DNA of 64,000 nucleotides from Alphaproteobacteria bacterium (GCA_030696155.1 JAUYSY010000088.1:7014-71013), one strand, 5' to 3'. Shown: positions 2,097 to 22,612, numbered from the stretch's first letter. Notes: generated by a model from the sequence alone, not told the origin. Translations and numbers: made by a program.

Positions 2097-3419
2097 TTAT
2101 TCAATTTCAATTTTTTTAATTATTATATTTTTTGGATAGTCAACACATAATTTTATTAATACATTATGCTCCCAATTATTTGTTATAATAATTGTTCGTT
2201 CTTTTCCATTAATACCAAAAAGTTTATTTTTTTTAATTGGTATTTTCTTTTTTTCTAGTCCAATTTTTTCTAAAAATAAATCAAAAATACTTCTATTAGA
2301 ATTATTTTTTGGCATAAAATTTATTTTAATACCTCCAATTCCACCAACAACTAGTTTAATTTTTTTTGCATTTTCAATTTCTATTGTTTCATCAGCGAAT
2401 ACAACACCATCCAAAGTAGAATTGTTCCATAAATCTTCAGATCTGCTATGTATTTTAACAAATGGTTTTTGGTAATCAATATTTTTTGAAAATTCTAATC
2501 TATCTGATATTTTTGTACTTAAAATTTTCAAATCTAAATCTAAATTATTTTCTTTTTTTGAAGTAAACATTAACCTAAACGGTTCTTCTGTTTTTATAAA
2601 TGAATCTTTTATTTCATTAATGCCTTTTTTAATATAAAAGGTATTTAATTTACTGGATGAAATAATTTCACCTAATTCATTGTAGCTTAAATAATAAGAG
2701 AATAATTTGTAATCACTATTAGAATATACTTTAGTTGAATATGTATAATTATATTTACCTTTTTGTTTTAATTGGTAATTTTCGTAACTATTTGGAGAAT
2801 AATAATAATCCTCATTTTCATTGCTTAATGAAAATGATTTTTTAGAATAATCCATTTGATTTAAAATTTCTTCAAATATTTTTTTTATTGATGGTTTAAT
2901 TTTTTTTATTTTGATGTTGTCGACAAGCTGTTCATTAAAATTTTTATTTAATTTTATAATTTTCCAACCCGCTTGATTGAAAACAACTTGAGACAAATGC
3001 GGATCGTTCAACAAATCGTATAATTTTGTAGAATACAAAGTAGGGTCATTATAATCATTAATCAAAAAATAAATAAAATCGTTTTCTATAAATTTATTGA
3101 ACAAATCTTCTGTGCTTTTATTTGATTTATTTAATATTTCGTATATTTGTTGACTATATAAATGAAACGGTGTTGGTTTCATGTATATAAGCTCTGCTTG
3201 TCTCATTGCTACTACTTTATTTTTACCAATAATAGAATTAACAGCTTTAATTACAAAAGATAAAGAATTATTTCCATGTAAGATTTTATGAAAATCCGAA
3301 TTATAAAAGGCATACGATTTTATATTTTTATAAAAATGTATAATGGGTATACTTGATAAAAGTACCACAAAAAAACAAAAAACAATGTATTTAAGTTTTT
3401 CTAAAACGAATGATGCCAT
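2097..3419 (-). CDS. Single-pass membrane protein with large extracytoplasmic domain; conserved partner of the GT-C-like gene (paralog of 19497..20777)
   Basis: One N-terminal TM helix. NDYNDPTLYSTKLYDLLND and AGWKIIKLNK motifs are shared with 19497..20777 and with the C-terminal domain of 29002..31029. The start overlaps the upstream GT-C gene by 29 nt. Confidence 0.6.
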   Translation of the reverse strand: MASFVLEKLKYIVFCFFVVLLSSIPIIHFYKNIKSYAFYNSDFHKILHGNNSLSFVIKAVNSIIGKNKVVAMRQAELIYMKPTPFHLYSQQIYEILNKSNKSTEDLFNKFIENDFIYFLINDYNDPTLYSTKLYDLLNDPHLSQVVFNQAGWKIIKLNKNFNEQLVDNIKIKKIKPSIKKIFEEILNQMDYSKKSFSLSNENEDYYYSPNSYENYQLKQKGKYNYTYSTKVYSNSDYKLFSYYLSYNELGEIISSSKLNTFYIKKGINEIKDSFIKTEEPFRLMFTSKKENNLDLDLKILSTKISDRLEFSKNIDYQKPFVKIHSRSEDLWNNSTLDGVVFADETIEIENAKKIKLVVGGIGGIKINFMPKNNSNRSIFDLFLEKIGLEKKKIPIKKNKLFGINGKERTIIITNNWEHNVLIKLCVDYPKNIIIKKIEIE

Positions 3420-4830
3420 ATCTAGAAAATACCTTTTCAGTAAATAATGATCCTATTAAAGCCATATGCAAAATAGGCTGTAGCATGTATCTATGGTTAT
3501 GTAAGAAGATATCTATACCTATAAAAGAGGCAAAAAGAACACCGAGATAAAACATAAAAACTATTAAAATTGAAAAATCTAAAAAAGTATTAATTTTAAA
3601 AATAGTATTAATTTTTCTTTTAATATAAATGATACATGCAGGAATGGTAATAAGATAGAAAAATCCAAAATTTCTATATTCAAAAAACATTTTTCCAAAT
3701 CCATAAAAGAATTTTTCAGAGAAAGAAGACACATCTCTATCTAGTTTTCTAAAATGAGTAAAAGCTTCTTTGTTTTCTTTTGCAATATCCATTGTATAAA
3801 GATCACCGAATATAGATCCTAATACGTCATATATTTTTATAAAATCAAGAATAACAACAGATAAACATACTAAAAAAGAAACACAAATATAAGTTATTGT
3901 TTTTATTAATTTTTTTCTATTTTTTATAAATACTATTGTAAATAAAATAAACAATGTTAGAATCCCAGAGCTGTGGACAAACCATGATAAACCTATTGAT
4001 AAACCCAATAATATGTAATTTGAATAATTATCTCTTTTGATGGTTAAGTAGGCAAATAAAGAGGCTGAAAAAAATGTTAAACACCTTATAGGGTCAATAT
4101 GAAAACCAAAAGACATCAAAAAGAAAAATGGAAAACTTAATACAAGAAATGTTGCAATAAAAGGATTTTTTATATGTTTCTGATAGGTTGATATTTTTAT
4201 TAAGATAAATGAAATAATAATAGGAACCATTATTACAAAAAATTTAGAATTTAAATTTTGAATATCAACATCAAGTAAGACTGCACCAAATGCCAGGTAT
4301 GAAGGAAAACCAAGGGGATGTGTAAGGGGTAGAACAAAACCTTTTATAGCATCTTTAGAAGGATAATCATATATAAAGCTTTTGCCTAAGATCAATCTTG
4401 AAATATGAAAATACTCTATTGAATCGTTTTCGATAACTGGAAAAAAAACACAAGATAAAATTAAAAATAAAAGCAAAACAACAACAAAAAACAAAACAAA
4501 AATATTTTTCAAATTATATTTTAAAGGTAAAGTATAATTATTAACAATAAACAATTTTAATTTTTTTAAATAAAATAAAGAATAAAAAAAGAATGGAAGT
4601 GTCGTTATAGAAAACAATGTATAAAAAGATTGTTCATTAAGAATTCTAGTGAATAACAAAAAAACAAAAGAAACAAAAGGGATTCCAATACCTAAACATG
4701 CACAGAACAAAAATCTTTTTTCTATTTTTGTTGCATCATAAGGAATACATATATTATAAAATGTAAATGGTATAAATATTGTTATAGCTAATATTTTTGA
4801 TATTTGAATTAGTATATCAATAAAATTCAT
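3391..4830 (-). CDS. Polytopic membrane protein, GT-C fold glycosyltransferase-like (ArnT/PMT/Gtr-type); paralog of 18097..19539 and 29002..31029
   Basis: More than 10 predicted TM segments. The first loop carries an acidic ENDSIEY motif followed by a conserved HPLGFPSYLAFG block. The same arrangement recurs in two paralogs (GNDPLQY...HPLGYPGLLAWG and ENDALEY...HPLGYPSLLVFQ). Confidence 0.55.
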   Translation of the reverse strand: MNFIDILIQISKILAITIFIPFTFYNICIPYDATKIEKRFLFCACLGIGIPFVSFVFLLFTRILNEQSFYTLFSITTLPFFFYSLFYLKKLKLFIVNNYTLPLKYNLKNIFVLFFVVVLLLFLILSCVFFPVIENDSIEYFHISRLILGKSFIYDYPSKDAIKGFVLPLTHPLGFPSYLAFGAVLLDVDIQNLNSKFFVIMVPIIISFILIKISTYQKHIKNPFIATFLVLSFPFFFLMSFGFHIDPIRCLTFFSASLFAYLTIKRDNYSNYILLGLSIGLSWFVHSSGILTLFILFTIVFIKNRKKLIKTITYICVSFLVCLSVVILDFIKIYDVLGSIFGDLYTMDIAKENKEAFTHFRKLDRDVSSFSEKFFYGFGKMFFEYRNFGFFYLITIPACIIYIKRKINTIFKINTFLDFSILIVFMFYLGVLFASFIGIDIFLHNHRYMLQPILHMALIGSLFTEKVFSRYGIIRFRKT

Positions 4831-5001
4831 TTTGACCCTGCAAAAAAACCATCCTTATTGTTTTACATGATTAATATCAATGTTTCAAGGTTAAAATAAA
4901 TTTCATAATTTTCTGGTTTTTCGATTTGGTAAAAACTGAATGTTAAAAACAAGTGAAACTCCATGGGGCAACCCCCGTGGTGTTTCGTTAGAACAATAAA
5001 T

Positions 5002-5532
5002 CTAGATTATTGTTTTTTTCATTATTATTTTTTTTCCACTAGAAAAAAAAATAATTTCGTTAAATAATAGTTTATTATATAAAAATCTAGCATTATTAGC
5101 ACTGTTAACAATTAAAAAAACATTCTTCTTTTTTGTTTTTTTTAAAACATCTTCAAGTGCATAACTTAAAAGCTCTTTTCCTAGCCCCTTATTTTGATAT
5201 TCTTGTACTATACTCGTTGAATAAAGCCATAATTTTGTAGATAATCTAAACGTTGCATATCCTATAATTTTATTATCAACATACAATATATATGTTAGAT
5301 CAGGTGTTTTTAAAAGATAATTTTTTAATTCTGAATCAAGAGAATCTTTGAAATTATTTCTATAAATTTTTAAAATTTGCTCTATATCATCATATGATTT
5401 TACATAATCAATTCTTTTTTTATTTTCTGTGCATATTTTTAAATTTTTAATTTTATTTTTTTTAAAATTATTCATAAAATTATGTAAAATAATTTCAGAA
5501 TAACTTATAAATAAAAATAAAATTTTAAACAT
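5002..5532 (-). CDS. GNAT-family N-acetyltransferase
   Basis: Acetyl-CoA binding-like motif QNKGLGKELLSYALE at the expected position in a 176-aa protein. Confidence 0.7.
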   Translation of the reverse strand: MFKILFLFISYSEIILHNFMNNFKKNKIKNLKICTENKKRIDYVKSYDDIEQILKIYRNNFKDSLDSELKNYLLKTPDLTYILYVDNKIIGYATFRLSTKLWLYSTSIVQEYQNKGLGKELLSYALEDVLKKTKKKNVFLIVNSANNARFLYNKLLFNEIIFFSSGKKIIMKKTII

Positions 5533-6569
5533 TATACACCTTCCTTTAGTAAGGAAGGTCCAATCATTTCATTAACCCATTCAGGTGATTTACGTATAAC
5601 AAAAGAAACTATTTTTCCTAAAGAGCCATCTCTTTTTATACTTTTTTGTTTTTTACAATGTATAACGCTTGTTGGAATGTCATATATATTTTGTGTAAAT
5701 TGTTTTTTGAAGTTTATTAAACCTGTATGAAATTTTGGTGCTGAACCTAAATCAAAAACTGAATGCTGTTGATTAAAAGAATATTTAATGGCTTCCCAAA
5801 GCAATAAATTCATTGGTCTCTGTAAAATGGCTTCAGGATTATCAAATGACCCGCCATAGGAATATAACGCTTTATTGTTATGATAAAAAATCATTATAGA
5901 TGCGCATAATCTATTATTATGAAATGCATTAAATATTAAAGTTTCTTTATTCAATTCACTATGAATTTCAGAAAATAATTTTTTTGGATATAAAGGTGAT
6001 CCTTGTCTTGTGCGTGTTTGTCTAATTATTTTGTAAAAATTTTCATAATCTTCGACCGAATTACCAATTTTAATTTCGATATTCTTGATTGCTTTTTTAA
6101 TATTTCTTTTATTAGTATCAGCAAGAGATTTAAAATATTCATCCGATGATTTAAAATCTTTGATAGAGACGACAGATATACAATTTTCGTTAGAAATTGT
6201 AACGTTTTCAGAAAAATCTTTAATATTATCTCTAAATTCAATATAATTGTATTTATTTGATAATGTTGAAAGTAAATTATTAATAGACTCTTTTTTTATA
6301 AAATCATTTTTACTTATTATTGGAACAGAGTGTGAAAATGGAATCGAAATTAATCTTTTTCCTTTTAATAATCCATTAACCTCAAACAAATTAAAAACAC
6401 ATGAAAATTCATCATTTTCTTCAGATAAAAAATACAAGGGTTTAAAATTATAAGTATTTTTTGTTACATTCATCCATCCAAGCGTATGATATATTTCTGA
6501 AATTTCAGATTCATATATAAATTTATTATATTTTTCTATATTTTTAGGATTTAAACTTAATAAATTCAT
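5532..6569 (-). CDS. FemAB/CelD-like (Acetyltransf_6-type) acyl/aminoacyl transferase; start reassigned to internal Met (TAATG coupling with upstream gene)
   Basis: Segment KRNIKKAIKNIEIKIG...FYKIIRQTRTRQGSP and overall size resemble FemAB-family / CelD-like GNAT-fold proteins. The ORF-track start at 6665 would overlap the upstream gene by 97 nt, whereas Met at 6567..6569 abuts its stop. Confidence 0.45.
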   Translation of the reverse strand: MNLLSLNPKNIEKYNKFIYESEISEIYHTLGWMNVTKNTYNFKPLYFLSEENDEFSCVFNLFEVNGLLKGKRLISIPFSHSVPIISKNDFIKKESINNLLSTLSNKYNYIEFRDNIKDFSENVTISNENCISVVSIKDFKSSDEYFKSLADTNKRNIKKAIKNIEIKIGNSVEDYENFYKIIRQTRTRQGSPLYPKKLFSEIHSELNKETLIFNAFHNNRLCASIMIFYHNNKALYSYGGSFDNPEAILQRPMNLLLWEAIKYSFNQQHSVFDLGSAPKFHTGLINFKKQFTQNIYDIPTSVIHCKKQKSIKRDGSLGKIVSFVIRKSPEWVNEMIGPSLLKEGV

Positions 6570-7375
6570 TATTTTTTCCGCATATATTTTATTGTATTCT
6601 TTAAAGCCACAGATGCAATATCCATTGAAAAAGATAATATATGTGAAGAAAAAGAATGAGACCATCTTTCTGGATGAGTTTGGATGATAATGTTATTAAA
6701 TTCTACATTATTTTTATTTTTGTAAATAAAGTCGATAAGACTGGACGTGCTTTTTAAGTTTGATAAGTCTAATCCATTTTTTTGAACATTATCTCTTAAG
6801 TTCGATTTTGTATTTCCCCAACTACGTGATGTATCTGTAAAATATTGAACTTTTTTATAATCAATCGAAATATAAGGTTCAGCAATAATTCCATTGTTTG
6901 TAAAGTCAAATTTTTTCCACAAATCTCTATTATCATATTTTGATAATGGACTACCGTGCATACATATTGTTTTTATACCTACTATTTTTCTAAAATTTTC
7001 AAGTTCACTTTTAAACAAATCATATGCTTTGGAGTAATCTCCTTTTGACTTTGAAAGTGTTTCGTAATGATACCCAATTTCATGCCCCAGAAGTTCAATT
7101 TTTTTAATAAGTTTTTCATTAAAAACGATAGGAATATGCCTAAAATAATAGGTTGATTTAATAGAAAATTCATTTTCTAATTCAGCCATTTTAAATGCAT
7201 TATAAGGAATTCTATCAACATCATGACGCATAATGATGCATTTCTCATTTTTTAATTCATTATAATTTTCATAAAATGATTTAAAATCAAAAAATTTATA
7301 CCCCATTTTTTGAAGGGAAAGGAAAAGGACTTTGTATTGATCAAGTGTAAAATCTTTAATATAATTTTGGGGCAT
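6569..7375 (-). CDS. Putative polysaccharide deacetylase-like (CE4-like) protein
   Basis: MRHDVDR motif near the N-terminus and downstream GHEIGYHYE His-containing block resemble divergent NodB-homology deacetylases. Weak. Confidence 0.35.
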   Translation of the reverse strand: MPQNYIKDFTLDQYKVLFLSLQKMGYKFFDFKSFYENYNELKNEKCIIMRHDVDRIPYNAFKMAELENEFSIKSTYYFRHIPIVFNEKLIKKIELLGHEIGYHYETLSKSKGDYSKAYDLFKSELENFRKIVGIKTICMHGSPLSKYDNRDLWKKFDFTNNGIIAEPYISIDYKKVQYFTDTSRSWGNTKSNLRDNVQKNGLDLSNLKSTSSLIDFIYKNKNNVEFNNIIIQTHPERWSHSFSSHILSFSMDIASVALKNTIKYMRKK

Positions 7376-9176
7376 TTTTTATAATTTCTATTGCATGATT
7401 TAAATCAAAGCCAACAACGCCTGCATATTCTTTCATAGACTCAAACCTTGGTTTGTTATCAATATTAATTTTGTCCATAGCCTCTTCTCTTGTAATAAGA
7501 CCTTGACGAATCTGTGAGCTTCTAAAGGTATCGTTTTCACTAAAACCAGCCATCTCCATATAAATATAATTGTAAAAAGCAGCAGTTCCGTCGCCTATTC
7601 GCCAAGTAGTATCAGAAGATTTTTCTGTTTCCCAATTATAATTATTTTTTAAAACATCAATAAGATGTTTTTCATCCCAATCTATATAATCGTAAATGGA
7701 ATGTATATTATGTTTTAATATATACGCACAATAAAAAGCAAATGCAGTATCGTATAAAGAAGAATTAAAATATCTCACATTTTTTAAATATTCTAAAAAG
7801 AAATATTGAACCATTTTAATTTTTTGAAGCTTAGGAACATATGTATACCAGCCATTTGATTCTTTTACACCACAAAATCCTGATTTAAATCCACTTTGCT
7901 CCATCTTATTTCCAGCAAAAAAGACTAAATCTATATTTAGATTTTTTGAAATAACTTGTGGATGGTAAAAATATTCTTTATCACCTGCCATTAATAATGT
8001 AACCATTCCTAATGATGGTCTCTTAAGCCAGGCTAATAAATTCTTTTGAACATATTTTCTTTTTTTTGGAATATCTGCTGAAACAAGTATATTTTCAACA
8101 CCAAGCTGACCGCACATTCTTGCAATATTACGTCTAGCAAGATCTGTAACCATGCCCCAGTCATAAGTATAAGTAACGGGATTCATACCGAGCTCTACTT
8201 TTAAGACATGAAGGGCGTAAGAGCTATCACGGCCACCACTAAAAGCAAGTATACAATCAGGCGATCCATCATTTTTCTTATGTTTATCACATAAAGCCCT
8301 TAAAGCATCAATACCTAACGGTTTGTAAGGAATATAGGTATTGCAAATAGAACAAACACCATGCGCATCAAATTTAATTCCTGGAAAAGTTTCAGGAAGT
8401 ACGCATTTAGAGCACCTTTTAAGATTTATTTTTTTTATGTTATTTTTGTTTATATCTATTAATTGGTATTCTTCTTTTTTTAATTCTATTTTTTTAATAT
8501 CGCCTTTTTTTAGTTGATGTACATTTATATCGTTAAAATATTTTTTAGAAATATTTTTGATAAATGTTTGCTGAGAAGCAAAAACAACCGCATTATTTTT
8601 ATCTTCTAAATAGTATAAAGATCCAGTATTTGTGCTAAGTGTTAAAATGTTTTCTTTTTTAAAAAGGCACGCTAAGGATGCATCTCCCTCAATTATTGAG
8701 TAGAAATCATTTAAAGCACTCTCAATTGATGTTTCTTTAATTTTTTTATCTAAAAATTCTGGAATTACGGCGGTGTCAAGTTCTGATTTTGGAGATTGAT
8801 TTAAATGATCTTTCCAAATTTTTTCATAATTGCAAATTATACCATTATGAATTACTACTATATCTTTTTCTAAAACGGGTTGATTATTAAAAACATTAGA
8901 ACGATCGCCATTCGTGCAAAGCCTTGAATGTCCTAAAATCAATAAATCTCCGTTTTTTATATTAACTTCATCTAGAAGGTTTATTAACTCCTTCTCTTTC
9001 ATTAGCTCTAAAACAGATCCCTTGTGTCTTAAGATTTTAATTTTTCCTTGATGGCGTATTGCTATACCACTTGCTTCTTTCCCACGAGAGTTGGAAAGTT
9101 TAGCCAGATCAAATAGTAACTTTTTCCACTGTCCATCAAACTCTTTATCTATATAAAACCCAAATACGCCACACAC
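7356..9176 (-). CDS. Fusion amidotransferase: class-II (Ntn, Cys2) glutaminase domain + zinc ribbon + PP-loop ATP pyrophosphatase of the WbuX/PseA N-acetyl-sugar amidotransferase type
   Basis: Starts MCGVFGFY (Cys2 nucleophile). Then CSKCVLPETFPGIKFDAHGVCSICN (CxxC..CxxC). Then AFSGGRDSSYALHVLK (SGGxDS PP-loop). Paralog of 20777..22612. Confidence 0.6.
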   Translation of the reverse strand: MCGVFGFYIDKEFDGQWKKLLFDLAKLSNSRGKEASGIAIRHQGKIKILRHKGSVLELMKEKELINLLDEVNIKNGDLLILGHSRLCTNGDRSNVFNNQPVLEKDIVVIHNGIICNYEKIWKDHLNQSPKSELDTAVIPEFLDKKIKETSIESALNDFYSIIEGDASLACLFKKENILTLSTNTGSLYYLEDKNNAVVFASQQTFIKNISKKYFNDINVHQLKKGDIKKIELKKEEYQLIDINKNNIKKINLKRCSKCVLPETFPGIKFDAHGVCSICNTYIPYKPLGIDALRALCDKHKKNDGSPDCILAFSGGRDSSYALHVLKVELGMNPVTYTYDWGMVTDLARRNIARMCGQLGVENILVSADIPKKRKYVQKNLLAWLKRPSLGMVTLLMAGDKEYFYHPQVISKNLNIDLVFFAGNKMEQSGFKSGFCGVKESNGWYTYVPKLQKIKMVQYFFLEYLKNVRYFNSSLYDTAFAFYCAYILKHNIHSIYDYIDWDEKHLIDVLKNNYNWETEKSSDTTWRIGDGTAAFYNYIYMEMAGFSENDTFRSSQIRQGLITREEAMDKINIDNKPRFESMKEYAGVVGFDLNHAIEIIKNAPKLY

Positions 9177-11280: not shown

Positions 11281-11579
11281 GCGTATTTCGCAAAACTGTA
11301 CCATTCGCTAAAAAGATGGTTAAATCAAAATACAAATGGCCTGGTTCAACGACACCTTACAATACAGAAGAAAAAATATTAGAAGTTCAGAACAAACCAA
11401 AGAACAGACCACGAAAATCGTTAAGCTATAAAAAAACGTAGAGAGTTTTTTTATAGCCCATTAAAACAAATCCTGATTGTACATATCACTGTCGATTTAT
11501 CATTTACTATAAATTTAATTGGTTAAAAATGTCATTTTCTATGTTGTCTTTTACACAATTATTTTAACAACAAATTTTA

Positions 11580-12413: not shown

Positions 12414-12428
12414 ATAAAACCCTAAAAC

Positions 12429-12444
12429 TTTCGCGGCCGCGAAA
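12429..12444. promoter_or_regulatory. Candidate parS site: 16-bp perfect palindrome TTTCGCGGCCGCGAAA between parA stop and parB start
   Basis: Perfect palindrome read directly. 18 of 20 positions match the 11829..11848 copy. Confidence 0.45.
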
Positions 12445-12445
12445 A

Positions 12446-13426: not shown

Positions 13427-13678
13427 TTTTATCTCTTAATCTAGTCTTATTGGATAATTACATAAATTTTTACAAGATACAAGTTATATTCAATTAAATC
13501 AAAAAACGTATCATGCTTCTTTTTTAGCTTTTAAGCATAATCCAAAAAATAATAACATTTTCTTTGATTGTTAAAAATTCCCCCTTGACAAGAAGAGTTG
13601 ATTTGTTGGTTAATAGGATATGAATTTTGGGAAAGTTTAAAAAAACATTTTCGTAAAATTTAAATTTTAAACACAAAC

Positions 13679-13711
13679 AAAAAAAACCTTCTGCTATAAC
13701 AGAAGGTTTTT
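13679..13711. other. Perfect stem-loop flanked by an A-run and a T-run (AAAAAAAACCTTCTG-ctataa-CAGAAGGTTTTT) in the parA/rep divergent intergenic region
   Basis: 7-bp perfect stem and 6-nt loop with A8 upstream and T5 downstream. Bidirectional terminator-like, but not at the 3' end of either flanking gene. Confidence 0.4.
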
Positions 13712-13839
13712 CTTACACATGAGCTTCAACACGCTCAAGATCACACAAAGTATCTTGAGTCTATAACAAACAATACGTAATGTCAAACAAATGTTGTTGC
13801 TTGTATGTGTATTAACTTATAAAGAGTTGGATCACACAC

Positions 13840-14943
13840 ATGATAAAATCTAAAGTTTTATTACAAGAAGATAAGTGTCTTGTTATGCAGCCGGAACTTA
13901 TTAAAATTGCGGGCAAATCAGCAGCATTATTATTACAACAAATTCATTATTGGATTAGTAATGAAAATGTTCAGGGTAAAATTCATAACAAAATGAAGTG
14001 GATTGCAAATTCCTACGAAGCATGGACTTCTGACATTAAAATAATATCAAGAAGCACTATTGGAAGATCAATAAATACATTAAAAAACTTAGGCATTCTA
14101 TTTGTTGAAAAATTGTCTGATTTTAAAAACAATAGAACAAATTGGTATACAATCAATTATAATCGTATTACTGAAATATTATCTATCCCTAGTATTGATC
14201 ATTCCGTACAAACTTCTTCGCATTTAAACGCTATCCCTGATCAAAATGTTATAGATGAACAATTCAAAATGAGCCCATGTTCAATTCAAAATGAGCCGAT
14301 GTATATAGATAAGAAAACAAACAAAGATATCTTAATAAATCTTAATAAATCAATAAATAATTCTTTTTCTGTAATTAAAAAAGAAAAAATAAAAAAGCCG
14401 TTGACAAAACAAATGATTGATATTTGGAATGAAATAATTAATCCGGATGTAAATTATGAACTTACTAAAAATAGATGTAAGTTTCTTGTTGCAGCTCTTA
14501 AATATAAGTTTAATTATGACATAACACAATGGAAAAATTATTGTTTTAAAATAAGTAGCAGTGATTATTTAATGGGAAAAATTAAAAATGGATTTAAAAT
14601 TTCTTTGGATACTATTTTAAAATTTGATTTTATTCAAAAAATTTTTGAAAAACAATTTGGTGTTAAAGATTTAAAAACTTCTTTTGAAACCGAAGAAAAC
14701 ATTCATCAAAAAATTGATGATACTAAATTACCATACGAAATAAAAGAAATACATCATAAAATTTGTGAAAAAATAGGTACTGCAAAATATATTTCTTGGT
14801 TTAAAGATACGAAAATATTTAAATTATCAAATTCAATAGATATTTTTGTTGATAATAATTTTAAAAAACAATGGATAGGAACAAACTATCAACGTGATCT
14901 TGAGAATTTATTTGGCATAAAAATTAAGATTATTATTAATTAA
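13840..14943 (+). CDS. Putative replication initiator / wHTH DNA-binding protein (divergent from parAB)
   Basis: N-terminal winged-helix-like segment (ISRSTIGRSINTLKNLGILFVEKL), as in DnaD/RepA-type initiators. The position opposite parAB across a 413-bp AT-rich spacer supports the call. The functional assignment is inference. Confidence 0.35.
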   Translation: MIKSKVLLQEDKCLVMQPELIKIAGKSAALLLQQIHYWISNENVQGKIHNKMKWIANSYEAWTSDIKIISRSTIGRSINTLKNLGILFVEKLSDFKNNRTNWYTINYNRITEILSIPSIDHSVQTSSHLNAIPDQNVIDEQFKMSPCSIQNEPMYIDKKTNKDILINLNKSINNSFSVIKKEKIKKPLTKQMIDIWNEIINPDVNYELTKNRCKFLVAALKYKFNYDITQWKNYCFKISSSDYLMGKIKNGFKISLDTILKFDFIQKIFEKQFGVKDLKTSFETEENIHQKIDDTKLPYEIKEIHHKICEKIGTAKYISWFKDTKIFKLSNSIDIFVDNNFKKQWIGTNYQRDLENLFGIKIKIIIN

Positions 14944-15075
14944 AAAGGTTATACAGGTTTAAAAATATGATGTTTATAAATAAGTATCAATTATTTTTTT
15001 GTTTAAACTTTTGAAAGTGTATCATATGATCTTTAATCTAGTTTTTATTCTGCAGTAAATGTGATATAAAAAAAT

Positions 15076-16239
15076 ATGAAAATTTTATTAACCGCAGGCA
15101 TTAATATAAATCAAAACAACGCATGTTCAATTAATTTTTTAAGAACAGCAAATTCTTTTTCTTATCTATCAAATGATGAAATCATTATTTTTACTGCTGA
15201 AAAAAATTCAAAATTATTTTCAATATTAAAAAAAAATAATATTATTAAAAAAAGTGGTTATTTTAATAAAAAACTTCCAAATTCAATAAATTTTCTTATT
15301 AATATTCCTAAAATTTTAAATATTGTTAGAAAAGAACATATTGATATTGTTTATATACGTTATAATCTTATGAGCTTTTTTCTAGTATTTTTTATAAGAT
15401 TTTTTTCAAATACTTTTATCGTAACAGAACATCACGGATGGGTTGAAGATGAATTAAAATCGAACAAAAAAAGTAAACTTGTTTCATTTTTATTTAAAAA
15501 ACTTCAAATATTAGATGTTAAAATGGCTCACTTAGCACGTGTAGTCGTGGATGGTATAAAAGAAAAATTTGTTAATAATGGAATAAGACAAGAAAAAATA
15601 GTTGTTTTTCAAAATGGTACCGATATTGCTTCTTTTGAAGATAAAAAGAATTTTAAAAAAATAAAATCAGATTATTATAAAATAGGATTTATAGGAAATT
15701 TAGCTGCGTGGCAAGGTGTACATATTGCGTTAATGGCAATGCCTATCATTCTTAAACATAGAAAAGATATAAAATTAATAATTATTGGAGATGGCCCTGA
15801 AAAGAAAAATCTTGAGCAGCTGTCTCATTCTTTAAATTTAAAAAACAATGTTGATTTTTGCGGGGAAGTTTCTTTTCAAGATGTTCCTTTAGTGTTGTCT
15901 GATTTTGATATTGCTATTGCACCTTTTACCTCTGAAAGAAATAAAAAAATTGGATTAAGTCCTATTAAAATTAGGGATTATGCAGCATCAGGGCTTGCAA
16001 TCATCTCTTCTGATATTAAAGGGATTTCTGATTATGATTGGCTTATTAAAGTGCAGCCAGATGATCCGGAAGCCTTGGCAAAAAATATTTTACATTTGGT
16101 TGAAAATGAACCCCTTAGAAAGAGTCTTCAAGAAAAATCAAAAAATTACGCTTTTGAGCATTTTGATGTAAAAATAATAGGTGCAGCCATTATGGCTGAA
16201 ATTACAAAAATAAAAAACAAACAATTAAGTGGCAAATAA
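15076..16239 (+). CDS. Glycosyltransferase family 1 (GT-B, GT4-like)
   Basis: C-terminal GT1 signature region IGFIGNLAAWQGV...IIIGDGPEKKNLEQL...FCGEVSFQDVPLVLSDFDIAIAPF. Confidence 0.85.
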   Translation: MKILLTAGININQNNACSINFLRTANSFSYLSNDEIIIFTAEKNSKLFSILKKNNIIKKSGYFNKKLPNSINFLINIPKILNIVRKEHIDIVYIRYNLMSFFLVFFIRFFSNTFIVTEHHGWVEDELKSNKKSKLVSFLFKKLQILDVKMAHLARVVVDGIKEKFVNNGIRQEKIVVFQNGTDIASFEDKKNFKKIKSDYYKIGFIGNLAAWQGVHIALMAMPIILKHRKDIKLIIIGDGPEKKNLEQLSHSLNLKNNVDFCGEVSFQDVPLVLSDFDIAIAPFTSERNKKIGLSPIKIRDYAASGLAIISSDIKGISDYDWLIKVQPDDPEALAKNILHLVENEPLRKSLQEKSKNYAFEHFDVKIIGAAIMAEITKIKNKQLSGK

Positions 16240-16245
16240 TATAAA

Positions 16246-18096
16246 ATGTGTGGTATTTGGTTTTCATTTTCACGAGAAATATCATCAAATGTAATTGATA
16301 TCATTAAACACCGTGGTCCAGATGATGCAGACTTTTTAAAGTTCGAATCTTCATTCGGCCCAATTTTTATGGGGCATAGACGTCTTTCAATTGTTGATGC
16401 GTCTTCTGCGGGTCATCAACCTATGGAAGATACAATTCATTCGTTGTGGATTACGTATAATGGAGAGATTTACAATTATAAAGATTTACGCCAAGAACTT
16501 GAAGGATTTGGACATCAGTTTAAAACTAATACAGACACAGAGGTTATTTTAAAATCTTATGTTCAATGGGGCGAAACATGTCTTCATAAATTTTCTGGGA
16601 TGTTTTCTTTTGTAATTTATGATAAAAAATCAGACCATATTTTTGTGGCAAGAGATCCATTTGGCATAAAGCCACTATATTATTATCAAAAAGGAAATTT
16701 TTTAGCTTTTGCATCGGAGATAAAACAATTTACGTGTTTAGAAGATTTTGAACGGCGTATTCACAAAAAACGTGCTTATGATTTTTTAAAAAATGGTATT
16801 TTTGATCATCGCGACGACACTCTTTTTGATGAAGTGAAGCAAATAAGGGGCGGGGAGTGTGCGTTTATTTCTTTAAAGGATTTTAAAAAGACACACTCTT
16901 TTAAGAAAAAAAAATGGTATGTGTTACCACATCCTGATTCAATTCAAATAACACTCAAAGACGCAATTGATCAATTTAGAGAAAAATTCAAAAAATCAGT
17001 TCAAGAACATCTTATGTCTGAGGTGCCTATTGGTTTTTGTCTTTCGGGTGGGTTGGATAGTTCGTCAATTGTAGGTATGGCCGATTATTTAAAAAATACA
17101 AAAGAACTTGTTACGATTAGTGCATGTTATAATGATAAATTTTTTGATGAAAGAGAATTTATTAAAGCTGTTGTTGATAAAACAAATTGTACTTCTCATT
17201 TTATTTTTCCAAAAGAAGAAGATCTTTTGGCTGATATCAAAAAAATAACATGGCATCAAGATGAACCATTTGGAAGCATGAGTATTTTTGCTCAATGGTC
17301 TGTTTTTAAAGAGGCGCATCAACATGGTTTAAAAGTAATGCTGGACGGGCAAGGTGCTGATGAACAACTTGCAGGTTATCTGTTTATGATGCCGCATTAT
17401 ATGAAGTGGCTTTTAGCGCGTCATCAATATATTGATTTTGCAAGTTTTGCTCTTAATTTTTCAATGAGCGAGCCTGTTTTTGTTTTAAGGTCACTAAAAA
17501 GATTATTTAACAAAAAAAATAAATCAAAAGAATTAATAATTAATAATAATTATTTTTTAGAAAATGAAGAAAATTATTCAACAGAAAAAAATGCATTAGA
17601 CTATTTAGATCTATCAACTTCTTCTGATATTGGTAATTTATGTTCTGCTTACGTTCAGTCTCTTCATTTACCAATGTTATTGCATTATGAAGATAGAAAT
17701 TCCATGGCACATTCGATAGAAGCACGTGTTCCATTTTTGGATCCAAAACTTGTTGAGCTTTCTATTGCTCTTGGTAATTCATATAAATATAAAAATGGGT
17801 ATACAAAAGTACTTATAAGAGAAGCAATGAAGGATATTTTACCATCTAAAATTTATAAAAGAAAAAGCAAATTAGGGTTCTCTGTTCCTGAAACAAAGTG
17901 GATTAGGGGTACCTTAAAGAATTTTATAAAAAATTCAATTGGTAAAGCATGTAATAAATTTCCAGAATTTTTTGACAAAAGTTCATTAATGGATTATTTA
18001 GGAGAGAGCTTAAATGGATCACACCATTTTGATTTCACTTTATGGCGTATAGCGAGTTTTGGAGAATGGTCTGATATGTTTGATGTTAAATTATAA
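16246..18096 (+). CDS. asnB: Asparagine synthetase B-like glutamine-dependent amidotransferase (WbpS-like, as found in polysaccharide loci)
   Basis: MCGIW N-terminal Cys2, HRRLSIVD, and PP-loop SGGLDSS. 616 aa. Confidence 0.9.
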   Translation: MCGIWFSFSREISSNVIDIIKHRGPDDADFLKFESSFGPIFMGHRRLSIVDASSAGHQPMEDTIHSLWITYNGEIYNYKDLRQELEGFGHQFKTNTDTEVILKSYVQWGETCLHKFSGMFSFVIYDKKSDHIFVARDPFGIKPLYYYQKGNFLAFASEIKQFTCLEDFERRIHKKRAYDFLKNGIFDHRDDTLFDEVKQIRGGECAFISLKDFKKTHSFKKKKWYVLPHPDSIQITLKDAIDQFREKFKKSVQEHLMSEVPIGFCLSGGLDSSSIVGMADYLKNTKELVTISACYNDKFFDEREFIKAVVDKTNCTSHFIFPKEEDLLADIKKITWHQDEPFGSMSIFAQWSVFKEAHQHGLKVMLDGQGADEQLAGYLFMMPHYMKWLLARHQYIDFASFALNFSMSEPVFVLRSLKRLFNKKNKSKELIINNNYFLENEENYSTEKNALDYLDLSTSSDIGNLCSAYVQSLHLPMLLHYEDRNSMAHSIEARVPFLDPKLVELSIALGNSYKYKNGYTKVLIREAMKDILPSKIYKRKSKLGFSVPETKWIRGTLKNFIKNSIGKACNKFPEFFDKSSLMDYLGESLNGSHHFDFTLWRIASFGEWSDMFDVKL

Positions 18097-19539
18097 ATGA
18101 CATATATATATTTAATAATAAAAATTTTAAATATATTTTTTATAGCTCCAGCAAGTATATATGCTTTTTTATGCTCTACTCAAATTAAAATTAGATATAA
18201 TATTATATATTCTTATGTTTTTGCTTTTGGTTTAATTCCATGGTTTTATATATTATTATTAAGAGTATTTCCATACCAACATTCTGGATTTTATATATTA
18301 TTAACCATTATTCCTTTTGTCTCTTTGTTGGTTTTGAAAGCTAAATTCTTTAGGTTTTTTTTGAATGAATTTTGTATGCTAAAATCAATTGCAAAAAAAA
18401 TAAATAAATTTTCTTTTTTTTGTTTTCTTTTTATGATTTTTTTCATTATGTTATGGTTTTTAAAAAAACCATTGCTTGGAAATGATCCATTGCAATATTT
18501 TTATCTTTCAAATCTTATAGATAATTTAAAGGAAATTTCTTTCTATCCATCAACGACTGCTGTTGATGAAAGAGGGTTTGTTGTACCATGGTCTCATCCT
18601 TTGGGATATCCAGGTCTTCTTGCCTGGGGTAGGCTTGGATTATCGAAAGATATTGGTCTTTTCTTTGCAAAGATATGTTCATTTTCAATGACATTTTTTC
18701 TTGCTTTAGCGCTTATTATTGTTCTTTATAAAGAAACAACTCGTTTTAATTTTTGGGCCTCTTTGTTGTTACTAACAACACCTTTATGTTTAAGTGGTGC
18801 ACTTGAATGCCATATTGATTCAAGTCGTATGCTTCTTTTTTTTGCTTCTTTTTTGCTTGTCTATGAATATCTTAAAAATGTTTCAGAAAAAATTATTTTT
18901 CAGAAAGATGTCATTTATTTTTTAATTTTAGGTACTTCATTTGGCTTTTCTTGGTTTTATCATTCATCTGGCATATTAACATATGTTATATGTATGGGGG
19001 TGTTTTCAATCATTTTTCTTTTAAATCAAAGGAAAGAAATGTCGTTTTATGTAATGCTAAAAAAGTATATTCCTTTGATTTTTTTGACGACTTTGACAAT
19101 GGTTTTAATTGTTTGTGTTGATTTATATAATTCGTTTAAGGTTCATGGAAAAATTTTAGCAGATTTAGAAAATATAAAAATAATTAATTTTATGTCAGAT
19201 GAATACAAAATGTATTTTGATTTAAGTAGAGGTATAAAGACTTTATGTGATAAATTTGTATTTGGTATTTTTAAAATATTTACAGAAATAAGTATATTTG
19301 GTATTGTTTATTTTTTATTTATTATTTCTTTGTTTTTGTCTATAAAAATGATAAAAACTAATAATATTTTAACTATATATAATTTTTCAATATTTTTTGT
19401 TTTTATCTTTTATTTGTTTGTTGTTTTTGCAACAATTGCTGGCGTTGGTACATTTGCATTTAATCCAAGGTATTTACTTCAAATTCATCCTATTGTTTGT
19501 CTCGTCGTAGCGCTTCAGATGAAAAGGATATGGAGATGA
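18097..19539 (+). CDS. Polytopic membrane GT-C fold glycosyltransferase-like protein (paralog of 3391..4830)
   Basis: GNDPLQY loop motif and WSHPLGYPGLLAWG block. Multi-TM. Start abuts the asnB stop (TAAATG). Confidence 0.55.
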   Translation: MTYIYLIIKILNIFFIAPASIYAFLCSTQIKIRYNIIYSYVFAFGLIPWFYILLLRVFPYQHSGFYILLTIIPFVSLLVLKAKFFRFFLNEFCMLKSIAKKINKFSFFCFLFMIFFIMLWFLKKPLLGNDPLQYFYLSNLIDNLKEISFYPSTTAVDERGFVVPWSHPLGYPGLLAWGRLGLSKDIGLFFAKICSFSMTFFLALALIIVLYKETTRFNFWASLLLLTTPLCLSGALECHIDSSRMLLFFASFLLVYEYLKNVSEKIIFQKDVIYFLILGTSFGFSWFYHSSGILTYVICMGVFSIIFLLNQRKEMSFYVMLKKYIPLIFLTTLTMVLIVCVDLYNSFKVHGKILADLENIKIINFMSDEYKMYFDLSRGIKTLCDKFVFGIFKIFTEISIFGIVYFLFIISLFLSIKMIKTNNILTIYNFSIFFVFIFYLFVVFATIAGVGTFAFNPRYLLQIHPIVCLVVALQMKRIWR

Positions 19540-20777
19540 TACGTTTTTTAAAAAAATCATTAATTTTTATATTAATTTTTTATGGTATTTTTTATTATAT
19601 ATTGCAAATTGATTATTTTTCATTTAACGATTTAAGGTTAAATGATTTTAATAAAAAAGATCAAAATTATTTTTTAAAATTATTTTCTTTTTTAGAAGAA
19701 CGTAATTATAAAAAAGCTTTTGTATTACGAGATGGTGAGTTTTTAACATATTCTAATTTAAATATACAGCATATTTTTGATGATAAAACAATTGATTTTA
19801 CGAATGATATAAATAAAATATATGATTTTGATTGTATTATTAGTAATCATTATAATGATCCAATATTTTATAAAACAAAATTAAATGATATTATAAATCA
19901 ATATGATAAAAGTTCATTGGTATTTGATGATCTTGGGTATAAGGTTTTTGAATTAAATAAAACCAATAATACAATTAATTCAGAAGGTTTTAAATTTGAT
20001 GTATCTGAAATAGATTTTTTGAAAAATAGTTATTTTTATTTAACACATAAAAATGAATATCCATCATTGTTGGCTAAGCCAGATATAAAATATGATGAAT
20101 TTCCCATTTTAGAAGATGGATTTTATGATTGTATATGTGATATGGAAATAATAGCTAATGAAGATTCTATTGTTTTGTTTTCAATTTTAAATTACGAATC
20201 TTACAGAAATAATTATATTCTTAAGGATACTTTATATTTAAAAAAAGGAAAAAATAATATTTCAACACGGTTTTTAACTACGAGCAAACCCTTTAGATGT
20301 TTATTTTCGTCTAAAAAACATCCTATTTCTATTGAAAATTTTAAAATAAATTTTTATAAAAAAGAAAATAAATTTTATGATTTAAATCAAATTTATCCAA
20401 AAACATATTCTATGTTGTTTGATGGTGGTAATATTAAATCAAATACACTTATTTTTTTTCAAAATAAAGATAAAAATTTTAAGTTAATCAATATGGATTT
20501 AGTTGGAGATGGTGAAGTTTTTTTATCAACGTTGAACTTAAATGGTATAAATAAATTTTTATTAAAAAATTCTTTTAATAATTTTTTAATAAAAATTTTA
20601 TTATTTTTTAATGGAGATAGTTCTGTTTTATCTATTGGCCAAAAATCAAAAATAATAGAAAAAAATATACCTCCGAACTCGATTCTTTTTTTACAATTTA
20701 AAAAGAATCATATGAACGAAAATGCAAATTTTGTTATACAAAATATCAAAATTATAAATGGAAGCGAGAACGATTAA
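19497..20777 (+). CDS. Single-pass membrane partner protein of the GT-C gene (paralog of 2097..3419)
   Basis: N-terminal TM. NHYNDPIFYKTKLNDIINQ and LGYKVFELNK motifs. Overlaps the upstream GT-C gene by 43 nt. Confidence 0.6.
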   Translation: MSRRSASDEKDMEMIRFLKKSLIFILIFYGIFYYILQIDYFSFNDLRLNDFNKKDQNYFLKLFSFLEERNYKKAFVLRDGEFLTYSNLNIQHIFDDKTIDFTNDINKIYDFDCIISNHYNDPIFYKTKLNDIINQYDKSSLVFDDLGYKVFELNKTNNTINSEGFKFDVSEIDFLKNSYFYLTHKNEYPSLLAKPDIKYDEFPILEDGFYDCICDMEIIANEDSIVLFSILNYESYRNNYILKDTLYLKKGKNNISTRFLTTSKPFRCLFSSKKHPISIENFKINFYKKENKFYDLNQIYPKTYSMLFDGGNIKSNTLIFFQNKDKNFKLINMDLVGDGEVFLSTLNLNGINKFLLKNSFNNFLIKILLFFNGDSSVLSIGQKSKIIEKNIPPNSILFLQFKKNHMNENANFVIQNIKIINGSEND

Positions 20778-22612
20778 TGTGTGGAATATTTGGATTTTAT
20801 ATTGATGAAAAATTTACAGGCAAATGGAAGAATCTTTTAGAAGATCTTGCAAAACTTTCTCATTCACGTGGAAAAGAAGCAAGTGGTATTGCTATTAGAC
20901 ATCAAGGGAAAATTAATGTATTAAGGCACAAAGATTCAAGCCTTGATTTAATTAAAGATGATGAATTTAAGTCTATTTTAAAAGAAATTGATATTAAAAA
21001 AGGAAATATATTGGTATTGGGTCACGCCCGTCTTTGTACAAATGGTGATCGTTCAAATATATTTAACAATCAACCTGTTTTGGATAAAGAGATTGTTGCT
21101 GTTCATAATGGTATTATTTGTAATTACGAAGATATATGGAAAAACTATCTGAATTCCTCATCTAAATCTGATCTTGATACCGCAATTATACCACCATTTC
21201 TAGACGAAAGCCTTAAAACGCTTTCTATAGAGGAATCCCTACAGAAATTTTATGACGTAATAGAAGGTGATGCATCCCTTGCTTGTTTATTTGCACGTCA
21301 AAATGTATGTACGTTAACAACTAATACTGGATCGCTTTATTATCTTGAGGATTCAAATGGGTCAATTGTTTTTGCTTCACAAAAAACTTTTATAAATACA
21401 ATTTCTAAAAAATATTTTAATAATATAAAAACACATCAACTTAAGCCTGGCGATATAAAAAAAATAGAATTACCACCTTCTATTAAAACTATTTTTCAAG
21501 ATTACAATAAAGTTGCAAAAAATTCTGTCGAACTCAAAAGATGTACTAAATGTATTTTGCCACAGACTTTTCCTGGAATTGCTTTTGATGAAAAAGGCAT
21601 TTGTAATATTTGCAATGAGTATAAATCGTTCAAGCCTTATGGTCGTTATGCCTTAGAAGAATTGTGTGACAAAAATCGTAAGAAAGATGGATCGCCTGAT
21701 TGTGTTTTGGCCTTTAGTGGTGGTCGTGATAGTTCTTATGCGTTGCATTATTTAAAATGTGAGCTAGGTATGAATCCTATCACCGTCACCTATGATTGGG
21801 GTGTTGTAACTGATTTAGCGCGCCGAAATATAGCGCGTATGTGTGGTAAATTGGGAGTTGAAAATATTCTTGTATCTGCGGATATAGATAAAAAAAGAAC
21901 CAATGTTAGGCTTAATTTAAATGCATGGTTTAAAAATCCAGATTTAGGTATGGTTAGTTTATTAATGGCGGGGGACAAACAATTTTTTTATTATCCTCAA
22001 AAAATTAAAAAAGAGCTTGATATAGGATTATTGTTTTTAGCCTCTCATAGAATGGAGCAAAGTAACTTTAAATCTGGATTTTGTGGTGTACATGAAAGAA
22101 ATTCATGGTATTTTGATGTAAAAATTACACAAAAAATAAAAATGATTTGGTATTTTATATCAAATTTTATAAAAACACCATCTTATATTAATAGATCATT
22201 GTTAGATACGGCTTATTCGTTTTATTGTTCTTATATGATGAAACATGATCTTACTGTTTTTTATGATTATATTCAATGGGATGAAGATGTTATTAATTCC
22301 GCATTAAAAGAACATTATAATTGGGAAACGGCAACTTCAACCACAACTACTTGGCGTATAGGTGATGGAACAGCTTCCTTCTATAATTATATCTATTCAA
22401 CAATTGCTGGATTCACAGAGCATGATACATTTAGAAGCACGCAGATAAGAGAAAATATAATTACGCGTGATGAAGCATTATCAATGGTAAAAAGAGACAA
22501 TGTTATGCGCTTTGAGGCTATGAAAGATTATGCAAAAATGATAGGGTTTGATTTAAACAAAGCCATTAATATTATTAATGAAGCACCTAAACTATACTCA
22601 AACGTAAAATAG
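20777..22612 (+). CDS. Fusion amidotransferase: Ntn glutaminase + zinc ribbon + WbuX/PseA-type PP-loop (paralog of 7356..9176)
   Basis: MCGIFGFY start. CTKCILPQTFPGIAFDEKGICNICN. AFSGGRDSSYALHYLK. TAATG overlap with the upstream gene. Confidence 0.6.
   Translation: MCGIFGFYIDEKFTGKWKNLLEDLAKLSHSRGKEASGIAIRHQGKINVLRHKDSSLDLIKDDEFKSILKEIDIKKGNILVLGHARLCTNGDRSNIFNNQPVLDKEIVAVHNGIICNYEDIWKNYLNSSSKSDLDTAIIPPFLDESLKTLSIEESLQKFYDVIEGDASLACLFARQNVCTLTTNTGSLYYLEDSNGSIVFASQKTFINTISKKYFNNIKTHQLKPGDIKKIELPPSIKTIFQDYNKVAKNSVELKRCTKCILPQTFPGIAFDEKGICNICNEYKSFKPYGRYALEELCDKNRKKDGSPDCVLAFSGGRDSSYALHYLKCELGMNPITVTYDWGVVTDLARRNIARMCGKLGVENILVSADIDKKRTNVRLNLNAWFKNPDLGMVSLLMAGDKQFFYYPQKIKKELDIGLLFLASHRMEQSNFKSGFCGVHERNSWYFDVKITQKIKMIWYFISNFIKTPSYINRSLLDTAYSFYCSYMMKHDLTVFYDYIQWDEDVINSALKEHYNWETATSTTTTWRIGDGTASFYNYIYSTIAGFTEHDTFRSTQIRENIITRDEALSMVKRDNVMRFEAMKDYAKMIGFDLNKAINIINEAPKLYSNVK

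Follow-up and report, generated by a model that had tools for sequence, protein, structure and literature searches.

A candidate three-component periplasmic glycosylation island with split GT-C proteins and a fused glutaminase-amidotransferase in an alphaproteobacterial contig

In the 64,000-nucleotide window of DNA analysed here (Alphaproteobacteria bacterium, GCA_030696155.1 JAUYSY010000088.1:7014-71013), the low-GC island from 1 to 34 kb holds three paralogous units of polytopic proteins of the glycosyltransferase C (GT-C) fold together with candidate enzymes for the tailoring of a donor sugar. With a probability of about 60%, these genes encode a three-component periplasmic glycosylation system, in which a tailored amino-sugar donor serves for transfer to a surface glycan. 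This interpretation draws on the folds, domain make-up and catalytic motifs of the encoded proteins, on the split of the GT-C into two genes, and on the conservation of the cassette across genomes. A preliminary description of the same DNA had reported two modules (A and B), each with a GT-C-like membrane protein, a single-pass partner and a fused amidotransferase, and the listing of open reading frames (ORFs) showed that all six of these genes are real and that their coordinates and strands had been given correctly. It had overlooked a third GT-C paralog, a GT2 gene (22623-23570), the Wzx-like flippases and a CE4-like protein.

Split GT-C proteins and their periplasmic half

Module A lies on the minus strand, with GT-C A (3391..4830, 479 amino acids), partner A (2097..3419) and fused amidotransferase A (7356..9176), and module B lies on the plus strand, with GT-C B (18097..19539, 480 amino acids), partner B (19536..20777, 413 amino acids) and fused amidotransferase B (20777..22612). 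GT-C A and its paralog GT-C B were 34% identical over 342 amino acids (E 2e-42), the two partners 28% over 230 amino acids (E 8e-16) and the two fused enzymes 66% over 607 amino acids, a full-length alignment, the genes of the latter forming inverted repeats of about 70% identity at the DNA level. With these values, which far exceed chance, the homology of the two sets in the previously proposed repeated trio held, but the contiguity of module A did not, since it is a tightly packed six-gene operon (fused enzyme, 268-amino-acid protein, FemAB-like transferase, GNAT acetyltransferase, GT-C A and partner A), in which the CE4-like 268-amino-acid protein (6569-7375), the FemAB-like transferase (5532-6665) and the GNAT enzyme (5002-5532) are encoded between the fused enzyme and GT-C A. 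The number of units also had to be raised from two to three, because a third paralog, GT-C C (29002..31029, plus strand, 675 amino acids), matched GT-C B at E 6e-18; its ortholog in the related locus L003 is 46% identical. Since the proteins of the two modules share 28-66% identity, the modules are old paralogs, and a recent duplication was rejected. Of the gene overlaps formerly taken as signs of translational coupling, the one in module A was retained, partner A overlapping the stop codon of GT-C A by 29 nt, while the 43-nt overlap in module B was an artefact of the longest ORF, which begins at a TTG codon at 19497. The start of partner B in the NCBI gene model (P0012, 413 amino acids, 100% identical) is the ATG at 19536, which is preceded by AAGGA 7 nt upstream and forms a 4-nt ATGA overlap with the stop codon of GT-C B.

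Profile analysis indicated that the polytopic proteins of the window are GT-C-fold enzymes, as had been suggested. The profile of their family aligned with E. coli ArnT at E 6.5e-6, and in the hhalign alignment the motif NDpLEY, which holds D130, was placed opposite PDETRY of ArnT. PMT_2 was matched by 21 of the 63 sampled family members at E <= 0.01, and none of the 63 matched Wzy_C (PF04932), which argues against a Wzy polymerase or an O-antigen ligase. In the window itself, PMT_2 gave no match to GT-C B or GT-C C, and its 23.4 bits for GT-C A fell just short of the gathering score (26.1); an 800-amino-acid relative in locus L009, which aligned with the window GT-C family at E 4e-30, reached 33 bits and thus exceeded the gathering score. 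The residues D130, Y150, P151, H167, H289, R458 and Y459 were invariant in 63-70 family members, including GT-C A, and D130 corresponds to the acidic residue that GT-C enzymes retain in the first extracytoplasmic loop of their conserved core. Because five helices are predicted before this ArnT-aligned loop in the topology model, the family appears to have an N-terminal extension of about four helices ahead of the canonical core. The exhaustive profile search placed 728 clusters (50% identity) in the family at E <= 1e-3, of which 562 also passed E <= 1e-10, compared with 11 hits from an earlier word-indexed search. The family profile matched no solved structure by sequence, and direct Pfam and NCBIfam scans gave nothing usable for GT-C B, GT-C C, both partners and the 268-amino-acid protein.

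The partner is, by profile comparison, the C-terminal half of a split GT-C. Both partners consist of an N-terminal transmembrane helix and periplasmic domains, which in partner B are an alpha/beta domain and two beta-sandwich domains. Positions 12-407 of a hidden Markov model (HMM) built from nine partner sequences matched residues 484-883 of the 889-amino-acid protein P0139 at E 2.5e-53, and the GT-C core profile spanned residues 3-459 of the same protein. The model also matched P0141 (3.5e-34), P0144 (3e-22) and, at lower significance, about 30 more long GT-C forms. These matches to the C-terminal halves of long GT-C forms contradict the earlier view of the partner as a separate single-pass component, and the match to P0139 rules out a novel accessory subunit. 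Among the top 146 representatives of the family, 88 had at most 560 amino acids and 51 had more than 750. The C-terminal end of the core is basic and R/K residues stand ahead of the transmembrane helix of the partner, as would follow if the chain had been broken within a loop on the cytoplasmic side. GT-C C is a single polypeptide in which the core is joined to a periplasmic C-terminal domain that is shorter and resembles the N-terminal domain of the partner, so that GT-C C and its L003 ortholog are intermediates with the first periplasmic subdomain still fused to the core. The split recurs in several metagenome-assembled genomes and in Bordetella avium, and is therefore functional rather than a sequencing artefact. 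Fold searches with the partner returned only generic matches to beta-sandwich proteins and carbohydrate-binding modules (CBMs).

Fused amidotransferase and conserved cassette

The fused enzymes combine a class-II (Ntn) glutaminase domain with a PP-loop domain of the NASAT/WbuX type. Both begin with MCG, their N-terminal domain aligned with the glutaminase domain of GlmS (1xff), and GATase_7 was matched with 40-42.5 bits (42.5 bits for copy A) against a gathering score of 25. At least 97% of 121 homologs conserved the Ntn glutaminase residues Cys2, R85, N111-G112 and D134, the tetracysteine motif CxxC...[GN]xCxxC (C256, C259, G274, C276 and C279, with the segments CTKC at 256 and CNIC at 276 in copy B) and the PP-loop SGGRDS at residues 314-319. 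A PP-loop SGGxDS and a Zn-binding tetracysteine motif have been named as the hallmarks of NASAT enzymes (PMC10607449). In addition, copy B matched the solved Legionella enzyme LpNASAT (8WEX) at E 1e-17 over about 310 residues. The Asn_synthase family (PF00733) had no match in the fused enzymes, and TIGR01536 scored 26-30 bits against a cut-off of 267. The GATase_7 score above threshold, the 8WEX match and the lack of PF00733 thus bore out the preliminary assignment to a glutaminase-WbuX fusion and not to asparagine synthetase proper. The TIGR03573 (WbuX) model scored 140.7 bits with copy A and 133.3 bits with copy B, below its cut-off of 203.2, and the fused enzymes are therefore a divergent, distinct and very large NASAT subfamily. 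They would putatively turn N-acetyl groups of sugars into acetamidino groups.

The fusion as such is no novelty, since it is common across bacteria and archaea with more than 5000 hits, and full-length relatives at 40-45% identity were found in Bordetella avium, Patescibacteria, Anaerolineae, Methanoperedenaceae and Woesearchaeota. It is usually annotated as GlmS, AsnB or hypothetical, and one plasmid copy as QueC. The latter, annotated 7-cyano-7-deazaguanine synthase, lies on plasmid pDCAR1 of Solidesulfovibrio carbinolicus (L001, 10912-20320), where it is flanked by a GT2 ortholog of 43% identity and two asnB genes, and it illustrates how systematically this family is mis-annotated.

Conservation of the cassette was assessed in eight independent GT-C loci, of which L003, L004, L011 and L013 were found as GT-C relatives and L008 (Bordetella avium), L009, L018 and L019 were reached through the fused enzyme. 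The neighbourhood statistics cover these eight loci and eight loci sampled via the fused enzyme, and they are not a census. A GT-C, split or whole, was present in 8/8 GT-C loci and was accompanied in each by a GT2 ortholog with 57-82% identity to that of the window. The fused amidotransferase was found in seven of the eight, a Wzx-like protein in six, and either a CE4-like protein of 254-268 amino acids (six loci) or a Pfam-recognised deacetylase (L019) in seven. The conserved unit is thus composed of the GT2, the flippase, the GT-C, the fused amidotransferase and the CE4-like protein, and the trio of the preliminary description does recur as a neighbourhood in other genomes. The minimal cassette, in L013, consists of GT2, a full-length GT-C and a 263-amino-acid protein. 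In one metagenome-assembled genome, L015 (3216-15076) carries the fused amidotransferase with methyltransferases, ATP-grasp and HAD proteins beside an msbA-like ABC exporter, DUF374, kdtA and lpxK; the GT2 - GT-C - CE4-like trio of the same sample lies on another scaffold, L013. DUF218 genes adjoin the GT-C/Wzx genes in L008 (8111-8722, B. avium) and L018 (12377-13105), and a DUF218 domain is fused in one GT-C family representative, while the window has none. This adjacency and the fused representative hint at a functional tie between DUF218 and the GT-C cassette.

The GT2 of the window (22623..23570, plus strand, 315 amino acids) matched Glycos_transf_2 with 73 bits, has a hydrophobic C-terminus with transmembrane helices, and is a putative polyprenyl-phosphate amino-sugar synthase of the GtrB/ArnC/PpgS type, in line with its best NCBIfam matches, the polyprenyl-phosphate sugar synthases PpgS and AglJ. 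Since a GtrB/PpgS-like GT2 adjoins the GT-C in all eight loci, the donor of the GT-C is putatively linked to polyprenyl phosphate. The candidate flippase (25381..26607, plus strand) is Wzx-like, of the MOP superfamily (Polysacc_synt 45.4 bits against a gathering score of 28.2), with orthologs in L003, L004, L008, L009, L018 and L019. The conserved cytoplasmic protein of 268 amino acids (6569..7375, minus strand) is a putative de-N-acetylase with weak likeness to the CE4/NodB family. It matched PgdA at E 0.002 (2c1g) to 0.02, CE4 deacetylases made up 8 of its 11 weak profile hits in the PDB, and orthologs with 38-54% identity were found in six independent loci (L004, L008, L009, L011, L013 and L018). 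RHDVDR, HEIGYHYE and HPERW were its invariant motifs, and the HDVD/HEIGYH spacing was not canonical.

Downstream of this protein, module A encodes a FemAB-like transferase (5532..6665, minus strand), which matched FemAB, FemAB_like and Acetyltransf_6 in Pfam, as well as pepcterm_femAB in NCBIfam with 104 bits, below the cut-off. Its start is probably Met33, near 6569, and the alignments with its orthologs in L004, L011 and L012 (36-37% identity) begin at residue 33-42. Its gene overlaps by 1 nt with that of a GNAT N-acetyltransferase (5002..5532, minus strand; Acetyltransf_1 46 bits, E 6e-12). The FemAB-like transferase would use aminoacyl-tRNA, and the GNAT enzyme may take part in donor tailoring. 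The genes that follow the 268-amino-acid gene vary: the window and L004/L011 have FemAB-like and GNAT genes, B. avium has one for a hexapeptide acyltransferase, and L009, L015 and L019 have genes for ATP-grasp and HAD proteins and for methyltransferases. This variation is the pattern expected if the 268-amino-acid protein frees an amine which lineage-specific enzymes then re-acylate.

The closest studied relative of the cassette is the BAV0081-0089 cluster of B. avium (L008). It contains two Wzx-like genes, a GT-C homolog (hhalign E 5e-18), a marginal partner-like gene of 342 amino acids (E 3.5e-4), DUF218, GT2, the fused enzyme (43% identical to the window), a CE4-like protein (38%) and an acyltransferase; the Wzx identity was 30%. 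The GT2 gene, at L008:8971-9921, was identified by a published primer sequence as BAV0086, and its product is 59% identical to the window GT2. A phage-resistance-selected S159L mutant of BAV0086 has rough lipopolysaccharide (LPS), the wild-type allele restores smooth LPS, and BAV0081-BAV0089 was regarded by the authors as a probable O-antigen locus (PMC12722373). The cluster shares five homologous components and the core/partner split with the window, and differs from it in having only one GT-C unit, the shorter partner, the DUF218 gene and the hexapeptide acyltransferase in place of FemAB/GNAT. It adjoins the wlb genes. The published phenotype concerns GT2 only.

Proposed mechanism and alternative explanations

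The scheme below is inferred as regards the donor, the acceptor, the sequence of its steps and the stage of tailoring, nucleotide-linked or lipid-linked. At the cytoplasmic face, the GT2 would load undecaprenyl phosphate with an N-acetylated amino sugar supplied by a nucleotide donor. Before or after this loading, the fused enzyme would hydrolyse glutamine in its Ntn domain and pass the ammonia to the PP-loop domain, which would adenylate the acetamido carbonyl with ATP and form the acetamidino group. In module A, a second amine may be freed by the CE4-like protein and re-acylated by the FemAB-like and GNAT enzymes. The Wzx-like flippase would then bring the lipid-linked sugar to the periplasmic face, where the GT-C core, with the invariant D130 in its periplasmic loop, would transfer it to a surface glycan, most likely the O-polysaccharide or core of LPS. 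The detached C-terminal half, with its transmembrane helix, alpha/beta domain and beta-sandwich domains, would work with the core and probably holds the acceptor, and the three GT-C paralogs may serve three different linkages or acceptors.

In three-component systems a GT-C works with a flippase and a synthase for polyprenyl-phosphate sugars, and the donor sugar can be tailored on the lipid carrier before transfer (PMC11127046). The combination found here, which the preliminary description could not place, fits such periplasmic glycosylation of the Gtr/Arn type (PMC11127046) and has a partly studied homologue in B. avium (PMC12722373); this placement follows from the GT2 and Wzx genes that adjoin the modules and had been overlooked. 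The former view of a surface-decoration system that is uncharacterised holds with respect to detail, but the system does not fall outside known pathway types. As a variant of the three-component theme, it centres on a GT-C family that is uncurated and usually split, and on a common but mis-annotated fusion. As in GtrA-GtrB-Gtr* of Shigella/Salmonella and ORF15/14/12 of Citrobacter youngae (the founding GT136), a membrane-anchored synthase, a flippase (here a candidate) and a GT-C are co-encoded (PMC11127046), the donor can be tailored on the carrier in these prototypes, and paralogous GT-Cs diversify the linkages. Their flippase is GtrA or MATE, whereas the candidate in the window is of the Wzx/MOP type. 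The window GT-C differs from theirs by its uncurated family, an apparent extension of about four N-terminal helices and the usual division of core and periplasmic domain into two genes, and the amidotransferase and CE4-like enzyme imply an amidino or re-acylated amino-sugar donor rather than a plain hexose or pentose.

Likeness to other systems was also evident. The Arn pathway (ArnC/ArnD/ArnT/ArnEF) likewise proceeds by GT2 loading, deacylation, flipping and GT-C transfer, and ArnT is the best structural match of the window GT-C, but its flippase is of another type, it has no amidotransferase, and ArnT has no large periplasmic domain. We take Francisella FlmF2/NaxD/FlmK and Bordetella LgmA/C/B to be analogues of this pathway. 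Orthology with the Arn pathway itself was rejected, the hhalign probability with ArnD being 2% and the GT2 being 30% identical to ArnC over the 110 N-terminal residues only. In mycobacteria, PpgS (Rv3631) makes polyprenyl-phosphate-GalNAc and the system of the GT-C Rv3779 puts GalN on arabinogalactan. Here too, a lipid-linked amino sugar made by a GT2 is transferred by a GT-C to a cell-wall polysaccharide outside the cytoplasm. With a PpgS score of 60.6 bits against a cut-off of 370 for the window GT2, however, the kinship is at the family level only, and PpgS/Rv3779 has neither an amidotransferase nor a split GT-C. The ammonia of WbuX, WbpG and AglX comes from separate HisH/HisF-like partner proteins, whereas that of the window enzymes would come from the fused class-II (Ntn) glutaminase. 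These NASAT enzymes share with the fused ones the PP-loop, the Zn tetracysteine motif and the location in glycan loci (PMC10607449).

Several observations weigh against the proposed three-component system. No GT-C protein of the window reached a curated family threshold in the Pfam and NCBIfam scans. The GT2 scored far under the cut-offs of its top NCBIfam matches, PpgS and AglJ (57.8 bits), and because the WbuX score is also under its cut-off, the acetamidino chemistry is not assured. The CE4-like protein had no Pfam match and only sub-threshold hits, the canonical second His of motif 2 was not evident in it, and its profile showed no detectable kinship with E. coli ArnD; its comparison with the Pfam-recognised deacetylase of L019 was not significant either. 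No genes for diamino-sugar nucleotide synthesis were found within the window. Among the eight loci sampled through the fused enzyme, a GT-C lay within 10 kb in four, and the enzyme occurred with no GT-C nearby in the Solidesulfovibrio, Agrobacterium and Patescibacteria loci and in L015, so it is a frequent but facultative addition. Finally, a mere decoration of side chains would have led one to expect a milder phenotype than the rough LPS seen when GT2 is mutated in B. avium, which points instead to backbone synthesis or to a step needed for ligation.

This phenotype leads to the best of the alternatives, a tentative one that we consider clearly less probable, in which the GT-C and its partner polymerise a homopolymeric amino-sugar polysaccharide in the periplasm, residue by residue, from undecaprenyl-monophosphate monosaccharides, much as the mycobacterial Emb/Aft enzymes make arabinan. 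In that case the cassette would be a complete pathway for O-antigen or exopolysaccharide rather than for decoration, at similarly modest odds. The B. avium cluster has the GT-C, GT2 and two Wzx-like genes, and inspection of the L008 neighbourhood found no Wzy_C protein, ABC transporter or further glycosyltransferase in it. The S159L mutation of GT2 abolishes the O-antigen completely in this probable O-antigen locus (PMC12722373), but the loss is equally explained by a sugar needed as primer, cap or ligation site. The CBM-like beta-sandwich domains of the partner would suit a polysaccharide acceptor. The B. avium O-chain is reportedly a homopolymer of 2-acetamidino-3-(3-hydroxybutanamido)-2,3-dideoxy-glucuronic acid, and such a make-up would suit an amidotransferase, a deacetylase and an acyltransferase acting together. 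Against polymerisation, the cytoplasmic GT4 and AsnB-type enzymes of module B suggest a conventionally built glycan alongside, and the presence of three GT-C paralogs within the island is easier to reconcile with several distinct additions than with one polymerase. Should the split GT-C be a polymerase, which we regard as doubtful, it would define a fourth route to O-antigens or homopolymers, independent of Wzy, ABC transporter and synthase, in which single amidino/acyl-amino uronic sugars on undecaprenyl monophosphate are flipped and then chained by the GT-C in the periplasm, with the B. avium O-antigen as a tractable prototype and about 700 protein clusters as members.

Modification of lipid A or core of the Arn/Lgm/Flm type is unlikely. 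The GT-C would here add a cationic sugar, amidino or free-amino, to lipid A phosphates or the inner core; that this would lower the negative charge of the surface and confer resistance to cationic peptides is just as improbable. The minimal GT2 - GT-C - CE4-like cassette of L013 mirrors ArnC - ArnT - ArnD, where deacylation of the lipid-linked sugar uncovers an amine, but the CE4-like family lacks detectable ArnD kinship, and the similarity of GT2 to ArnC is limited to the generic N-terminal part. Acetamidino and de-N-acetylated sugars are both cationic by general chemistry, but re-acylation by FemAB/GNAT in module A would cancel the positive charge. The proximity of the fused-enzyme cluster of L015 to the msbA-like gene, kdtA and lpxK also favours a link to lipid A, whereas the periplasmic part of about 400 amino acids with two beta-sandwich domains has no known counterpart in ArnT, and a modification of lipid A phosphates would not explain why the GT2 mutant of B. 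avium lacks O-antigen. Protein O-glycosylation, by which the PMT_2-like GT-Cs would modify secreted or surface proteins such as the three paralogs of about 500 amino acids that share the island with the three GT-C units (two of them signal-peptide-like), is very improbable, since PMT_2 also takes in ArnT-type lipid and glycan transferases, the B. avium phenotype concerns LPS, and the 500-amino-acid family is missing from every related cassette locus, its co-occurrence thus being specific to this contig.

If the three-component reading with a tailored amino-sugar donor holds, a sizeable GT-C family of 728 clusters would be defined, one that Pfam and NCBIfam models miss at their curated thresholds, and a recurrent "hypothetical" gene beside GT-C genes would be explained as the detached periplasmic half. 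The widespread glutaminase-NASAT fusion, mis-annotated as GlmS, AsnB or QueC, would be tied to lipid-linked periplasmic glycosylation, and BAV0081-0089 would be a genetically tractable test bed for the delivery of cationic or N-acyl-variable amino sugars to the surface and for possible O-antigen polymerisation by a GT-C. The system would then also bear on phage receptor biology, serotype diversity and glyco-engineering.

Other genes of the island and the flanking contig

The operon of module B begins with a cytoplasmic glycosyltransferase of the GT-B fold and GT4 type (15076..16239, plus strand; Glycos_transf_1 and Glyco_trans_1_4), whose ortholog in L003 occupies the corresponding place and is 46% identical. 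It is followed by an AsnB-type, amide-forming glutamine amidotransferase (16246..18096, plus strand; Asn_synthase 251 bits, TIGR01536 437.8 bits against a cut-off of 267), 60% identical to its L003 ortholog. The same operon encodes a protein of 605 amino acids with a hydrophobic, signal-peptide-like N-terminus (23567..25384, plus strand), whose gene overlaps both neighbours by 4 nt. It had no family match in Pfam or NCBIfam, and among the loci compared an ortholog at the same position was found in L003 only (52% identical). Between the Wzx gene and the third GT-C, a candidate O-acylation pair is inserted on the minus strand (26604..28963), consisting of a DltB-like MBOAT (27566-28963; MBOAT 94 bits, LTA_dltB 162 bits, below the cut-off) and a DltD/DUF1574-like protein (26604-27557; DUF1574 match weak). 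The pair is missing at this place in the syntenic L003. GT-C C is followed, with an overlap of 8 nt, by a polytopic membrane protein of 410 amino acids (31022..32254, plus strand) with no family match, whose 40% identical ortholog follows the GT-C C ortholog in L003; it is possibly a second flippase.

The glycan modules are bracketed by the three paralogs of about 500 amino acids, at 105-1664 (minus strand), 9793-11280 (plus strand) and 32392-33915 (plus strand). These genes share 72-88% DNA identity across long stretches, and a hydrophobic N-terminus resembling a signal peptide occurs in two of their products. The family had no match in Pfam or NCBIfam, and the plasmid collection contained no relative of it.

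The stretch that separates module A from module B carries, at 11580-14943, genes for ParB, for ParA and for a Rep-like protein in which a DnaA_N domain was recognised. Plasmids of Candidatus Bandiella numerosa and Candidatus Megaera polyxenophila, both protist symbionts, shared 64-71% identity with the ParA/ParB DNA, and the contig may be a plasmid. The content of guanine and cytosine (GC) in the window was 22-30% up to about 34 kb and 31-41% beyond. This step, near 34000, coincides with a serine recombinase/resolvase gene at 34108-34677, and the glycan island may therefore differ in origin from the rest of the contig. Further downstream, at 38685-44025, an ORF of 1408 amino acids followed by small ORFs resembles a large secreted or polymorphic toxin with immunity-like genes downstream, and fragments of transposase and recombinase genes occur at 52893-53201 and 57973-58776.

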